Assembly: GCA_965153455.1 (NCBI GenBank)
Contig: OZ234494.1
Coordinates: forward strand, 10,788,001-10,852,000
Direction of reading: 5' to 3'
Origin: Sphagnum compactum
Taxonomy: Eukaryota
Length of the DNA: 64,000 bases
Positions 8,785 to 59,503 of the stretch are shown piece by piece; positions within the stretch are counted from its first letter, which is position 1, and each line of letters begins with the position of its first letter. The notes beneath the pieces were generated by a model. The model was not told the DNA's origin, did not search any database, and worked only from the letters and a program-made list of their open reading frames with translations. A program made the position numbers and the translations under genes.

Positions 8785-9050
8785 CCGAACCTCCATTACC
8801 AAATCTACTCCAGTTCCAAATTATGCTTTCCGAACCTGGCAACCCAACCTACTATAGATGTAGATTTAGGTTTCCGAGTCTGCGCTATCAAATCTATTAA
8901 GGATGTAGATTAAAATTTCCGAACCTGGCAACCCCAATCTATTGTCGTTGTAGATTTAGATTTCCGAGAAAAACCTCAGTATCAAATCTATTAATGATGT
9001 AGATTAAGATTTCCGAACCTCGCTACTAAATCTACTAGAGATGTAGATTT
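8785..9050. repeat. Six ~45-bp tandem units, most carrying an AATCTAY-N7-GTAGATT dyad, at the beta-tubulin promoter
   Basis: CCGA anchors at 8785, 8830, 8874, 8919, 8964 and 9013. Units 2/4 and 3/5 resemble each other more, giving a dimeric higher order. Confidence 0.9.
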
Positions 9051-9259
9051 TGTTGGAGGAAATCCGCTTTGGACCTGGCGCTCATTTCTGCCTTCGTTTT
9101 CACTGCCCCTCTTGTGTTGCATCTCTCTCTCTCTCTCTGTGTGCGTCTCTTCTGTTTCTTCCCTTTGTCGCTGCTTCTTCTCGGCTCTTCTCTGTGCACC
9201 TGCGTCGCTCGTGTTTGCGTTTTTCTTCAACTCTCCGTGTGTCATCTGCGGCTTCCAAG

Positions 9260-10938
<1,679 letters not shown>

Positions 10939-20528: not shown

Positions 20529-22142
<1,614 letters not shown>

Positions 22143-22865
22143 CTTGGCAGAACGAGATCGAAACCCCCGCAGCAAAAACAAAAACAAAAGAACCCAAACC
22201 AAAGAAGCAGACAAACAAATGGGAGGCGCGAAGAAGAGCAGAAGTGACGACGAGATCGAACTCCCCGCAACGAAAGAAAACCCAAGAAGGCAAAGAAAGC
22301 AAGCAAACGAGGAGAGGGTAGAAGGAAGGCGCGAAGGAAGAAGAGAAGCGCAAGACGAAGTAGAAGACGAGAAAATAGAACAGATAAAGAAAGGCCAGCA
22401 AAAGAAGGGAAGTAGGAACTGCGCGGTCACATGAGTGACAGCTCACCGCTAAAATCTACGCAATTTATGGATTCTTCGAAATGTCTCCAGTTTTGGTTCC
22501 ACTGAAATCTACATATTTTCTAATTACTTCAAGTGAGCTTATGGACCAGGTAACTGGCAACAGGTAGCCGCCGGTTACAAGTGAGGTAGCCGGCTACTGA
22601 AAGGTCGGGTAAGCCTCTTCTCAATATTTGATGTCCTGTTTGGACGACACAATGCATACATAGGAAAAGAATGATGAGAAAGTTTCGCTTGGTGAACACG
22701 AACATTCACCGGAGAACAAAATCAGAGCTTGAGAACCTTTTGGACCAGAGGTTTTTATGCACTAGATAACTGGCAAGAGGTAGTCAGTGAGATATCGAAA
22801 ACAGCTAAGGATGCAAGAGCGGCAAAGGTACTTCAAGTAATCGATGACATTAAACCGAAGACAAT

Positions 22866-31006: not shown

Positions 31007-31302
31007 GTTTGTGTGCCCCGCGAGGACTCTGTCGCGCGCAGAGATCCGGCGTCGCGGGTGGTGCAGATTCCCAAAATTGCTTCTCATCTCGGCGATTTGT
31101 GAAGACAATCTGCCTCTCTCGTTTCCGCGTCTGTTCAGATCTGAAGGGAAAGAAAGAAAGAAATCATCCGATCTACTTCTTTGTAGTAGTGGTTTCCATT
31201 TTGTGCTCAGTAGTAGAGTAGCTTGGCAGAAGCTCGAGGACGTGAAGAAGACTCGAGAAGAAGATACAGTGTTTGCTGGGTTTGCAATTCGCGTAATACC
31301 CA

Positions 31303-33778
31303 ATGCAGGGAGTAAGAATAATCTGCTTTTTGTTGTTGTGCTCAATTTGGATACTTCTTCCTAGTGTCACGGAGCAGCGGAGCCTGGAAGAAGCACATAA
31401 TGATGATGATGATGATCTCAGGAAGGAAAGTGATCTTCTAGTGCAGAAGCTCCACGGCATTTCAAGATGGAATGGGGTTGATACTAGGGAGGAGGAGGAT
31501 TCTGGAGGTGCACAGCATGTTGACATGATCTGGGACTTACCGGCTGTCATTGCCAGCTCTCTCTCTCTTTCATCATCCCATCTTGCAGATCCTGCGCCTG
31601 AAGAAGACGAACCTCCTCCGCCTCCGGATGATGAACCGCCCCCTCCTCCTCCTCCTCCGCCACTTTCTCCTTCTCCTCCCCCTCCGTCTCCATCACCACC
31701 TCCACCAACGCCCTCTCCACCACCCCCTTCTCCTCCTCCTCCTACCCCATCACCACCTCCACCTTCTCCACCACCGTCGTTCCCATCACCACCTCCACCA
31801 ACGCCCTCTCCACCACCCCCTTCTCCTCCTCCTCCTACCCCATCACCACCTCCACCAACGCCCTCTCCACCACCCCCTTCTCCTCCTCCTCCTACCCCAT
31901 CACCACCTCCACCAACGCCCTCTCCACCACCCCCTTCTCCTCCTCCTCCTTCCCCATCACCACCTCCACCTTCTCCACCACCGCCATTTCCATCACCACC
32001 TCCACCACCCCCTTCTCCTCCCCCTCCTTCCCCATCGCCACCTCCACCATCCTTTTCTCCTCCCCCTCCATCTCCCGATCCGCCTCCACCATCCCCTTCT
32101 CCTCCGCCCCCGTCTCCTTCTCCTCCGCCTCCATTTCCCTCTCCCCCACCACCATCCCCGTTTCCTCCGCCTCCACCATCCCCTTCTCCCCCGCCTCCAT
32201 CAGCGTCTCCCCCTCCGCCTTCTCCACCTCCACCATCTCCTCCTCCTCCTCCTCCTCCCCCTTCGCCTCCTCCCCCTCCTCCCCCACCTCTCATTACACT
32301 GAGCAACCTGGTAGTGTCTCAGGGAGCGCTACTGTTGCCCCCTTTTGATGCGCATGTCTTCTCTTACCGCACATCAGTTGCAGAATACGTTTCTGCAATC
32401 CGCATCACTGCATATCTGCCTGCCGATTCCAAGGTATGTCATGTAGGAGTAGTGTATACAAAGCAGATTTGCTCATCATCATCGGCATTGCAAGATTTTG
32501 TTATCTTAGGTTTGAAACCAACTGTGTTGTGAAGCACACAAGACTTCCATGTGTTTCCATGCATCTGTTGAAGCACAGAGAGATTGCCTGTTTGCCATGT
32601 GTGTCTATGACATTGAATCCAAAGCTTTTTTTAACACATTTGTAGTTCATGGATTCTTTGTTTCCATGCATCATCTGTTGAAGCACAAAGATTTTTTTTC
32701 CGTGTCTGTCTATGACATAGAATTCAGAGCTTTTGGCACATTTGTAGTTGACAGATTCTTTCTTTCCATGCATCTGTTGATGCACATTATTGTGTTCCAT
32801 GTTTGCCTATGACATAGGATTCAGAGCTTTTTACATAATTTGTAGTTCACAAATTCATTGTTTCCATGTTTGTCCATGATACAGAATTCAGAGTTTTTGA
32901 CGCATTTGTAGTTCATGAATTTGTTGTTTCCATGTGTCTTTTTCCAGGACAGAGAATTTTGAACTCTGAAAATTTTGTAGCTTTGACACATTTGTAGTGT
33001 AGTTTTCCAAGAGTGATGATTGTCATCGAGTTAGTTTGGACAGTGCGAGATAAGTGGCAATTGCTTTGCATTCCTTGTAATTTGAACTGTGCACATCGGG
33101 TGGGCATGGTGCAGGACTATGAAATCAAGGTCAACACAATGTCAATGAGAAGTGGAGAAGAAAGCCCACCATTGCAGATTGGAGGCAATGAAGAAACAGT
33201 AGAGTTTGCAATTTATGTGTCAGCAGCTGAGCACAGACCTGTGGTCTACTCCCTCTCTGTCTATCGTGGTGAGATGTTCCATCCTTTTACTACCACTCTT
33301 TGTTTTATTGTTGAAAATTTCATGCACCCTTATTTATGGGGTCTCTAAGATGCACCATCATAAAGCTCTAACAGTGGTAGAAGGATTAGCATTAGCTGCT
33401 TAACGCATTCTGTGCAAAGCATGCCAGCAATGGAGAATGTTTTTATAGCAGATATGCGGGTGGAGAGAGGGACGTGTCAGATGTACTAAAGCAGCTCATG
33501 AGCACATTGCTGGGTGTTTGATGGTTTTTGCAGAGAAGAAGATGAGTTTCTGGTGGAAGGTTCTCAAATGGATTCTCATTGTGCTCTTAGCTATTCTGGT
33601 GATTGGGGGAATCCTGTATTGTTGCTTTGCCTTTTTCCGAGGTACACGAGCTCTTGGGGAGTCAGGAAGAACTCTTGGGTGGTGGCCATTTGGCTATTTC
33701 ACTCGACAACAGCAAGCTGGCGTAGAACCAGATCCTTCCCCTCTTTTGGCTGAAACATCTGAATCTTCTCAGCCTTGA
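31303..33778 (+). CDS. Type-I membrane proline-rich (extensin-like HRGP) protein with a cadherin-like beta-sandwich domain, about 509 aa
   Basis: Exons 31303-32433, 33115-33268, 33534-33778 (phases 0 and 1, consistent). Signal peptide MQGVRIICFLLLCSIWILLPS; about 225-aa SP3-5/XPSPPPP region; LSNLVVSQGALLLPPFDAHVFSYRTSV...IRITA...IKVN...SGEESPPLQIG...FAIYVSA...YSLSVYR (cadherin-like beta-sandwich pattern); TM WILIVLLAILVIGGILYCC; short cytosolic tail. Confidence 0.88.
32530..33000. repeat. Degenerate tandem repeat (about 5 units of 67-102 bp) in intron 1 of the extensin-like gene
   Basis: C.CATTTGTAGT-like anchors at 32635, 32737, 32834, 32901 and 32987, with repeated TTTCCATG and GAATTCAGAG. 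Confidence 0.85.
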
Positions 33779-34780: not shown

Positions 34781-37813
<3,033 letters not shown>

Positions 37814-58313: not shown

Positions 58314-59503
58314 ATGAATGGAGCCTATGTACCACCAGTCTATGTCCCGGATCTTCACTCTGATGAAAAGGATGATGACCTTCCACCATTGTCACCTTCA
58401 CAAACCCAGCACTTGTTGGATCATGGAGGGTCTATGTCCTCAGCAGCAGCAGTGCAGCAGCATCCACCGCAGCAGCAGCAGCAGCAGCAGGCGGCCTTTC
58501 ATTGGACTTCAGGAATTTGTGCCTGTTTTGATAATATGCCTGTTTGTATGTCCCTGCTCTTTTGCTACTGTTGTTTTCATACTTATACATTCTTCGCTTG
58601 TGCACAAGTCATGATTCGGTTTCAGTTTCTGCTTCTGCTGGTTTGTATTACATGAGAATAATGTGGGCGAGGGCAGGTTGTTTGGGGTGCTGGTGCCCGT
58701 GTGTGCTCTTTGGAAGGAATGTAGAAATGCTGGAGGGCAGGCCATGGCTAGGACCCTCTATGGTTCATGTTCTTCTTTGGGGCATTCCATTTGGTGTCTG
58801 CTGTGCTCTTTCCAATACAGCAATTGGCCTCCTTGTTGCTTGTGTTCCCTGCTATGCCTGCAGATTCCGCCGTGCTCTTCGCAGCAAATATAATCTGGAG
58901 GTGATAGTCTCCTCATCTTTATATCACACTACTGTGTCTGTAATTATGAGGGCATGACATAGTTAAGGCTAGCTAAATAGGAAGTATCAGTTGTGTTCCT
59001 CTTGCTCTTTCACCTTTGAAGGCTCTTAGAATGTAAAGGTCCACACTCATCCTTTGAATTGGATTTGGATTCTTGTTTGGATGTCAACTTTGAGATCTCA
59101 TCTTGCTAATGATGGTCTTGATTTCTTGTCATGATGCTTTCAGGATGCTCCATGTGGAGACCTCATCACACACTTGTGCTGCCACATGTGTGCAAATTGC
59201 CAGGAGCATCGTGAAATGTGTGAGCGCACAACAATGGCAATTGGCCTTTCTTCAGTGAAGCCCCCACCTACTCAGAGAATGGGTGCAGGCAAGTTACAGC
59301 TCTTTCCCCACTGGAGCATGCAGATTGCAGTCTGCATTTCAGTATGCATTTCTGTGCACCTGGTGTTGCACTATGTTTTGCTTCACATTCCTGTTGAGTT
59401 TGAAATTCTGCTGTACTGTAGTATCGATTTCTTCCTCCAACTGTGGACCGTTTGTGTGTATGTAGTCCCTGAATATGTTCCCAGATATGTAATGCATGTT
59501 TGA
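58314..59503 (+). CDS. PLAC8-family (cell number regulator / FW2.2 / PCR-like) Cys-rich protein; C-terminal end uncertain
   Basis: Exons 58314-58545, 58677-58900, 59144-(59288 or 59503). Motifs WTSGICACFDN, CCLGCWCPCVLFGRN, YAC.FRR.LRSKYNL, DAPCGDLITHLCCHMCANCQEHRE, plus a poly-Q tract. 5'UTR intron 58160-58293. Confidence 0.92.

Follow-up and report, generated by a model that had tools for sequence, protein, structure and literature searches.

Background

The well-known chimeric extensins, the PERKs, signal through a kinase. In these proteins an extracellular extensin-like N-terminal region is followed by a single transmembrane helix, an arrangement shared by the product of the gene described here. 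In the survey that classifies them, an extensin has the working definition of at least two SPPP motifs, a domain of the hydroxyproline-rich glycoprotein (HRGP) type and a signal peptide, and proteins with a non-HRGP domain outside the LRX, PERK and FH groups are gathered as 'other chimeric extensins', i.e. a catch-all class of 346 proteins and not a family (Liu et al. 2016, PMC4769139, excerpted text). According to the same excerpts, Sphagnum lies outside the 16 genomes studied there. The present analysis concerns a gene of Sphagnum compactum that occupies positions 31303 to 33778 of a 64,000-nucleotide stretch of contig OZ234494.1 (10,788,001 to 10,852,000 of assembly GCA_965153455.1), the whole of which is called the window in what follows. 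Its predicted product, in which an extensin-like rod, a beta-sandwich of the Pfam family PF12733, a transmembrane helix and a short tail follow one another, fits, with a putative signal peptide, the definition of the catch-all class; it differs from the PERKs in that it has no kinase and a tail of 45 residues. We know of no PERK that carries a PF12733 domain between rod and membrane.

Two systems from other lineages resemble this design. The yeast proteins Wsc1 and Mid2 are cell-wall integrity sensors, and the likeness to them, which is one of working mode, would extend to a leader, a head, a stiff O-glycosylated rod, a single transmembrane helix and a short tail devoid of an enzyme. Nevertheless, the sequences are not known to be related. 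Yeast has rods that are rich in Ser/Thr and carry mannose, and the head of Wsc1 is a Cys-rich WSC domain, whereas the window protein has a rod of SP4 motifs (a serine followed by four prolines; SP3, SP6 and SP8 are used likewise) and a beta-sandwich between rod and membrane, and no WSC domain was found in Pfam scans of its relatives. In the Volvox proteins Algal-CAM and the pherophorins a polyproline rod is likewise fused to a globular adhesion-type domain at a cell surface of the green lineage. There, the domains are of the fasciclin or pherophorin type and the proteins are wall-bound or linked to glycosylphosphatidylinositol, whereas the window protein combines PF12733 with a transmembrane helix and its relatives gave no fasciclin or pherophorin match in Pfam.

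With respect to mosses, the excerpted text of PMC5371791 states that Ser-Hyp4 (Hyp, hydroxyproline) is galactosylated and arabinosylated and that this modification is required for an extended structure, that Hyp-arabinosylation is present in mosses and that the integrity of the moss wall depends on it, that repeated SP3-4 motifs are missing from what Physcomitrella encodes, and that true extensins first arose in the vascular plants. Literature searches by the name or accession of the PF12733 domain or by Sphagnum locus tags found no plant paper, those that paired Sphagnum with extensin, or cadherin-like with extensin, transmembrane and moss, found nothing on this architecture, and the excerpted part of PMC12026656 holds nothing on Sphagnum extensins. 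The searches thus yielded no counter-example to the statement in an earlier note on this DNA, made from the sequence alone, that no characterised plant protein of this architecture is known.

Results

The locus is a real, intact Sphagnum gene. Its product belongs to a small, uncharacterised family of land-plant proteins, named so far only in Sphagnum and a spikemoss, in which the conserved unit is, as judged from the alignments, the succession of sandwich, transmembrane helix and tail, and the rod a variable add-on. The domain assignment was made by Pfam scans of the end of window exon 1 and of exon 2 separately, and of the full relatives P0001-P0005, with a cut-off for PF12733 of 24.2 bits. 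The exon 1 tail matched the first part of the profile (17.6 bits) and exon 2 alone gave zero matches, whereas P0001, P0002, P0003 and P0004 matched it in full (33.0, 30.3, 37.8 and 35.2 bits; positions 1-89 or 1-87 of 89). Including the truncated model P0005, which reached 15.9 bits and so stayed below the cut-off, four of the five Sphagnum proteins found pass it, and no other Pfam family exceeded its own cut-off in any of them. The classical cadherin family PF00028 was not listed at E <= 1 for these five proteins, 'cadherin-like' being merely Pfam's name for the fold. The domain call itself is not new, since UniRef already labels a Sphagnum member as a protein with a cadherin-like beta-sandwich-like domain.

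A hidden Markov model (HMM) of the domain was built from 11 members of the family. It scores family proteins at 95-136 bits and the spliced window protein, in which it covers residues 333-428, at 134.2 bits; no single domain of a bacterial-type repeat protein (see below) scores above 50.4 bits. In a maximum-likelihood tree, 19 domains of the plant family are split at 100/100 support from the 25 best repeat domains, with the window protein inside the plant group, and it has the architecture by which the family is defined here: one sandwich, immediately after it a transmembrane helix, and a short tail in which [DE]xxxL[LIV] or YxxPhi occupies a distal place.

The fold was modelled by AlphaFold on the C-terminal 180 residues of P0001 with an alignment of 17 sequences. 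The model has seven strands, a mean predicted local distance difference test score (pLDDT) of 81.2, values of 87-95 over modelled residues 1-100, and a helix at modelled residues 105-142, which correspond to window residues 434-471. In a structure search of the Atlas, nine of ten rows name PF12733 for the aligned part (TM-scores of 0.51-0.60); both Atlas searches returned bacterial PF12733 clusters only (scores of at most 0.85) and no plant cluster among the clusters of at least 50 members. Solved structures were less specific: a VIA-align comparison yielded Ig-like sandwiches of a generic kind, among them glucodextranase domain B (Z 7.4), and a profile search of PDB sequences gave a single chance transmembrane match (E 0.25). 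The family assignment is therefore based on the predicted fold together with the Pfam profile, and on no solved relative. These results bear out what the earlier note had read from the translation, namely a beta-rich domain of about 95 residues (96; 333-428) that belongs to PF12733 and is predicted to form a beta-sandwich. Since the sandwich ends about five residues ahead of the transmembrane helix, it would be seated on the membrane, with the rod and the acidic head pointing away from it.

Relatives were collected in several ways. The last 51 residues of exon 1 retrieved five proteins among 24 candidates. Four of the five bear the name of Sphagnum troendelagicum, S. jensenii or S. compactum, and word-based protein searches with the domain half, or with domain, helix and tail, returned Sphagnum proteins only. 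An exhaustive HMMER search with a Sphagnum profile of sandwich, helix and tail yielded 773 proteins at E <= 0.001; 206 of them pass E <= 1e-10, and 21 pass E <= 1e-30. The family and repeat-protein members considered from this search were drawn from the best 150 of the 773 matches; members of the family with weaker scores may be concealed further down, behind the large repeat proteins. Proteins with a single domain, helix and tail among these best 150 are P0018, P0022, P0026, P0032, P0034, P0076, P0104, P0141 and P0148; P0141 and P0154-P0156 are known solely from short assembled contigs. A profile word search identified P0104 as Selaginella moellendorffii and P0018 as Sphagnum fallax. This search scored the 8000 candidates that shared most words and returned 20 proteins; because it missed the known members P0001-P0004, it is mute on absence elsewhere. 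All named relatives, among the best 150 of 773 matches and in the 20-protein word search, are from Sphagnum or Selaginella, which fits the proposal of a protein of non-seed plants.

Sphagnum has three paralogue lineages, and Selaginella groups in the tree with P0032 and the group of P0076 and P0141. In the alignment of 17 sequences, Y26, V34, G62, S65, E75 and Y93 (numbering of the C-terminal part of P0001) are invariant and an SGEESPP loop is nearly so, its G and S being kept in 17 of 17 sequences and its first P in 16. The proline-rich span, on the other hand, ranges from 0 to 236 residues among 16 relatives: it has lengths of 113 and 126 residues in members of the second lineage of Sphagnum, is missing from the third (P0018, P0157) and measures 13-68 residues in most of the remaining relatives, whereas P0076 has a 236-residue Ser/Pro-rich stretch that lacks motifs of SP3 or longer.

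The features of the gene and its product are collected in Table 1.

Table 1. Features of the gene and of its predicted product (positions in the window; residues of the spliced protein)
Feature	Positions	Strand	Evidence or remarks
N-terminal hydrophobic leader (residues 1-24)	31303..31374	+	Kyte-Doolittle 1.7-2.35, 19-residue window starts 1-7
Acidic head segment (residues 25-103)	31375..31611	+	21 D+E versus 6 K+R in 79 residues
Tyr-free SP4 extensin-like array (residues 104-329, 226 residues)	31612..32289	+	Composition, motif count
PF12733 beta-sandwich, N-terminal half (residues 333-377)	32299..32433	+	PF12733, 17.6 bits, profile positions 1-34 of 89
Exon 1	31303..32433	+	377 codons; start codon, leader, acidic segment, Pro-rich rod, first beta-sandwich half; donor AAG|gtatgt
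Intron 1	32434..33114	+	681 nt, phase 0, GT..AG; splits the beta-sandwich domain
Exon 2	33115..33268	+	154 nt; residues 378-428 (second sandwich half) and first base of codon 429
Intron 2	33269..33533	+	265 nt, phase 1, GT..AG
Exon 3, coding part	33534..33778	+	Linker, transmembrane helix, cytosolic tail, stop codon
Transmembrane helix (about residues 434-464)	33548..33640	+	Kyte-Doolittle up to 3.02, window starts 432-448; AlphaFold helix
Cys458-Cys459, cytosolic end of helix	33620..33625	+	Candidate S-acylation site
Cytosolic tail (residues 465-509, 45 residues)	33641..33775	+	Conserved WPFGY stretch in alignments
DPSPLL (residues 495-500)	33731..33748	+	Fits acidic dileucine [DE]xxxL[LI]

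The N-terminal leader, which is read as a putative signal peptide on account of its hydrophobicity, is kept in paralogue P0003 together with the adjoining TEQRSL, and 19-residue hydropathy windows above 1.6 are confined to this N-terminus and to residues 432-466. The acidic segment has no match to a Pfam family in the scans of window exon 1 and of the full relatives. The rod that follows is composed of 167 Pro, 41 Ser, 7 Thr, 5 Phe, 3 Asp and one each of Glu, Leu and Ala, and contains 25 SP4, one SP3, one SP6 and two SP8 motifs. It thus carries the repeated Ser-Pro3-5 motifs by which extensins are recognised in the working definition excerpted from PMC4769139. The YxY cross-link motif is absent from the entire 509-residue protein, which is therefore no classical cross-linking extensin, and isodityrosine cross-linking of the rod is impossible because the rod has no Tyr. 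No kinase family was listed at E <= 1 in P0001-P0004, and neither a leucine-rich repeat nor an FH2 domain occurs in the Pfam scans of exon 1 and of the same four proteins; together with the tail of only 45 residues this sets the protein outside the PERK, LRX and formin chimeras.

Polyproline-II helices rise by 0.31 nm per residue, from which a rod of 226 residues would, by calculation, be about 70 nm long if fully extended and glycosylated. Orthologues from two other Sphagnum species, compared with window positions 31639-32290, have rods of 217 and 203 residues, the rod DNA consists of nested tandem repeats with periods of 15-150 nt, and the contigs of library X12 skip 280 and 436 nt within the array. 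The differing lengths and these skips indicate that the number of SP4 repeats changes fast, or that the array assembles poorly.

The four cysteines of the protein are found at positions 8, 13, 458 and 459. The latter two, next to the helix, are a candidate site of S-acylation (palmitoylation), and the second of these juxtamembrane columns is Cys in 12 of 16 aligned relatives. The tail is predicted to be disordered, since its pLDDT is below 50. A candidate sorting motif is present in all 15 complete tails, as [DE]xxxL[LIV] in eight and otherwise as a distal YxxPhi at the matching place; both are motif classes that are read by AP adaptor complexes. The composite architecture put forward in the earlier note is thereby recovered in its parts: an acidic segment with RSLEE (read in the translation within residues 25-103), a Tyr-free SPPPP rod of about 225 residues (226, Tyr 0), a single transmembrane helix with a juxtamembrane YCC (residues 457-459) and a tail of about 45 residues (465-509).

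The spliced coding sequence measures 1530 nt, i.e. 509 codons and a TGA stop. On the + strand the open frame extends from 31297 to 32532 in a stop-to-stop reading, so that the ATG at 31303 is the earliest possible start. The three exons had been described as in-phase: the frame is indeed kept across them, yet only intron 1 is of phase 0, intron 2 being of phase 1 and therefore splitting a codon as G|AG. The orthologues P0001 (501 residues) and P0002 (488 residues) read continuously over both joins, and it follows that an independent annotation has the same exons; over the last 180 residues the window protein is 97.2% identical to P0001 (Sphagnum troendelagicum) and 96.7% to P0002.

Both joints, 32433/33115 and 33268/33534, are present in the contigs of RNA libraries X1/X2 and X12 at a depth of 53-58, where X1 and X2 agree in every figure, so that a single data set was probably deposited two times, and where the RNA label of X12 is a guess. 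They were mapped as 32431->33113 (cut +2) and 33267->33533 (cut +1), each with GT..AG, and contigs of the introns in X1 have a depth of 5-8 only. The junctions proposed beforehand are thus both joined in RNA-library contigs of a close Sphagnum relative. Three loose-end reads at 33551 in the poly-A run X24 gave a consensus which, translated by eye, is the exon 2/3 join of a paralogue with a shorter rod. An RNA contig of 1870 nt in X1 extends about 840 nt past 34200, for which the convergent RPN11 neighbour, with its end about 1 kb beyond the stop codon, is the probable explanation.

Some further observations concern the introns and the opposite strand. Intron 1 holds a 97-nt tandem repeat of 3.1 copies (32552-32868), which is overlapped by a 67-nt repeat at 32789-32935. 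The family proteins P0005, P0012 and P0165 read into an intron without splicing, P0012 having past the end of exon 2 the same residues as the window frame 32998-33348; these may be unspliced transcripts or errors in the gene models. A Gly-rich open frame on the minus strand (31173-32318) was considered as a gene and rejected, as it is the mirror image of the CCN codons of the prolines.

In the neighbourhood of the gene, a pair of oppositely oriented tubulin genes is found at 9047-10938 (+) and 20529-22442 (-), with some 10 kb between them. In both, the Tubulin GTPase domain (111-113 bits) and the Tubulin_C domain (140-141 bits) lie on different open frames. The convergent neighbour at 34781-35032 (-) is an open frame that matches the C-terminal domain of the proteasome subunit RPN11 (101 bits), and an open frame at 58535-58957 (+) has a PLAC8-family match (42 bits against a cut-off of 34.4).

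Discussion

Most of the best 150 of the 773 HMMER matches are long proteins with 5-30 matched stretches. Ten large repeat proteins were scanned with Pfam and all ten carry 5-14 PF12733 stretches, two together with SLH and one with a sorting tail of the type IX secretion system (T9SS); with such arrays and modules they can be taken as bacterial-type surface proteins. The window protein shares with the bacterial PF12733 surface proteins the Pfam domain and the predicted fold. They differ, however, in that the bacterial proteins have many tandem copies next to SLH, T9SS-tail or Ig-like modules, whereas the plant protein has one copy, combined with a leader, an SP4 array, a transmembrane helix and a tail with a sorting motif. 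A bacterial origin of the domain fits these nearest outside relatives, and the Pfam description reportedly mentions that the domain is of restricted occurrence in eukaryotes and proposes that they received it from bacteria by lateral transfer. If real, such an origin would be ancient, because an intron splits the domain and because the plant branch with 100/100 support includes a lycophyte. That the locus should instead stem from a recent bacterial transfer, from contaminant DNA or from an annotation artefact is exceedingly improbable in our judgement. Although PF12733 is overwhelmingly bacterial among the matches and the opposite strand has its long Gly-rich frame, the latter only mirrors CCN codons, and the gene has two spliceosomal GT..AG introns, one of them within the domain and both removed in the RNA-library contigs. 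Moreover, it is flanked by the plant genes for tubulin, RPN11 and a PLAC8 protein, it has relatives in three Sphagnum paralogue lineages and in Selaginella, and in the tree the 19 rows of the plant family stand together at 100/100, separate from the 25 repeat domains.

As to what a resident gene of this kind might do, we infer topology, glycosylation, rod geometry, localisation and function from the order of the parts. A cleaved leader and one transmembrane helix make a type I protein, the rod of which lies outside the cell. The product would accordingly be a type I single-pass membrane glycoprotein, in which the SP4 array, once hydroxylated and O-arabinosylated, would form a stiff polyproline-II rod that extends into the wall and carries the acidic N-terminal head outwards by as much as about 70 nm. 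Head and glycosylated rod may engage the wall non-covalently, the sandwich on the membrane face may contact carbohydrate or protein, and the tail may couple the protein to a cytosolic partner or to adaptor-mediated endocytosis, which would then set its level at the surface. In this mode of working the protein would resemble yeast Wsc1/Mid2, or a PERK minus its kinase. We thus favour a kinase-less tether, or a probe (sensor) of the state of the wall, between wall and plasma membrane, and consider the chances for and against it to be about evenly balanced.

Several observations weigh against this reading, and part of them bears on two other functions that have to be considered. The signal peptide is called from hydropathy, and the rod-less paralogue shows, as far as sequence comparison goes, that the core works without a rod that reaches the wall. 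The first of the other functions is that of a ligand-binding receptor or adhesin, in which the sandwich binds a wall polysaccharide or a partner protein and the rod is only a glycosylated spacer or shield. PF12733 domains are thought to act in binding beside bacterial glycoside hydrolases and S-layer proteins, and it is the sandwich, with its nearly invariant SGEESPP loop, and not the rod that is the conserved element; outside the family, the closest relatives are surface proteins of bacteria that have an SLH or a T9SS sorting domain, and the weak structural matches include accessory domains of glycoside hydrolases, carbohydrate sensors and glucodextranase domain B. These structural matches, however, do not rise above background, since the solved structures are generic Ig-like sandwiches with a best VIA-align Z of 7.9 (none at 8 or above, i.e. 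within the stated background of the tool) and Foldseek gave zero matches against PDB at E <= 0.001, so that the fold is uninformative about a ligand, for a tether as much as for a receptor. A sandwich that is only about five residues away from the membrane and is topped by a rod of as much as 70 nm would furthermore reach poorly into the wall, and a receptor overlaps with a tether instead of excluding it. All in all, we regard a receptor as rather unlikely, though deserving of some weight.

The tail gives rise to the other function, that of a cycling endomembrane cargo or sorting receptor that shuttles between trans-Golgi network, plasma membrane and vacuole by means of its motif and that might escort or deposit wall glycoproteins. 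The presence of [DE]xxxL[LIV] or a distal YxxPhi in every one of the 15 complete tails, which are short, disordered and devoid of an enzymatic domain, suits a cycling or endomembrane protein as well as a stable tether; that short linear motifs easily arise by chance has to be weighed against the tether, too. Against a sorting receptor, these same motifs serve the ordinary endocytosis of surface proteins; an SP4 array of 226 residues would be unusual for a lumenal sorting receptor, and there is no similarity to known plant sorting receptors, PF12733 being the only Pfam family above its cut-off. We therefore think this function improbable. A last group of observations concerns expression. Since the spliced contigs match the window at about 97% and differ from it at about 3% of positions, they derive from a close relative and not from the window locus, so that splicing is shown for an orthologue; in the poly-A run X24, the only one with the same species label and read to about 12%, 17 reads aligned and none fell on unique exons. 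With these reservations, a link from wall to plasma membrane, as a tether or as a probe of the state of the wall, is still the reading that we prefer.

A bolder idea is put forward as a conjecture that we regard as improbable: the unit of PF12733 domain, helix and tail would be a kinase-less system of surface sensing or tethering, derived from a domain of bacterial surface proteins that was captured before the split of mosses and lycophytes. Non-seed plants would have retained this system, whereas seed plants would have lost or replaced it, and lineage-specific extensin 'nanosprings' of 0-236 residues would tune the reach of each paralogue into the wall.

Conclusion

A Sphagnum gene with 25 tandem SP4 motifs and no cross-linking Tyr bears on the history of the extensins: if the conjecture above is true, it would also show that a moss encodes long tandem SP4 arrays, even though the model moss was reported to be without any. 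Membrane-spanning chimeric extensins are candidates for a link from the plant wall to the cell interior, and next to the design that signals through a kinase, the present gene provides a second, kinase-less one, which combines an SP4 rod, a bacterial-type beta-sandwich and a tail with an adaptor-type motif and is found in early-diverging land plants. As the walls of Sphagnum underlie the formation of peat, its surface glycoproteins are thus also of ecological interest.

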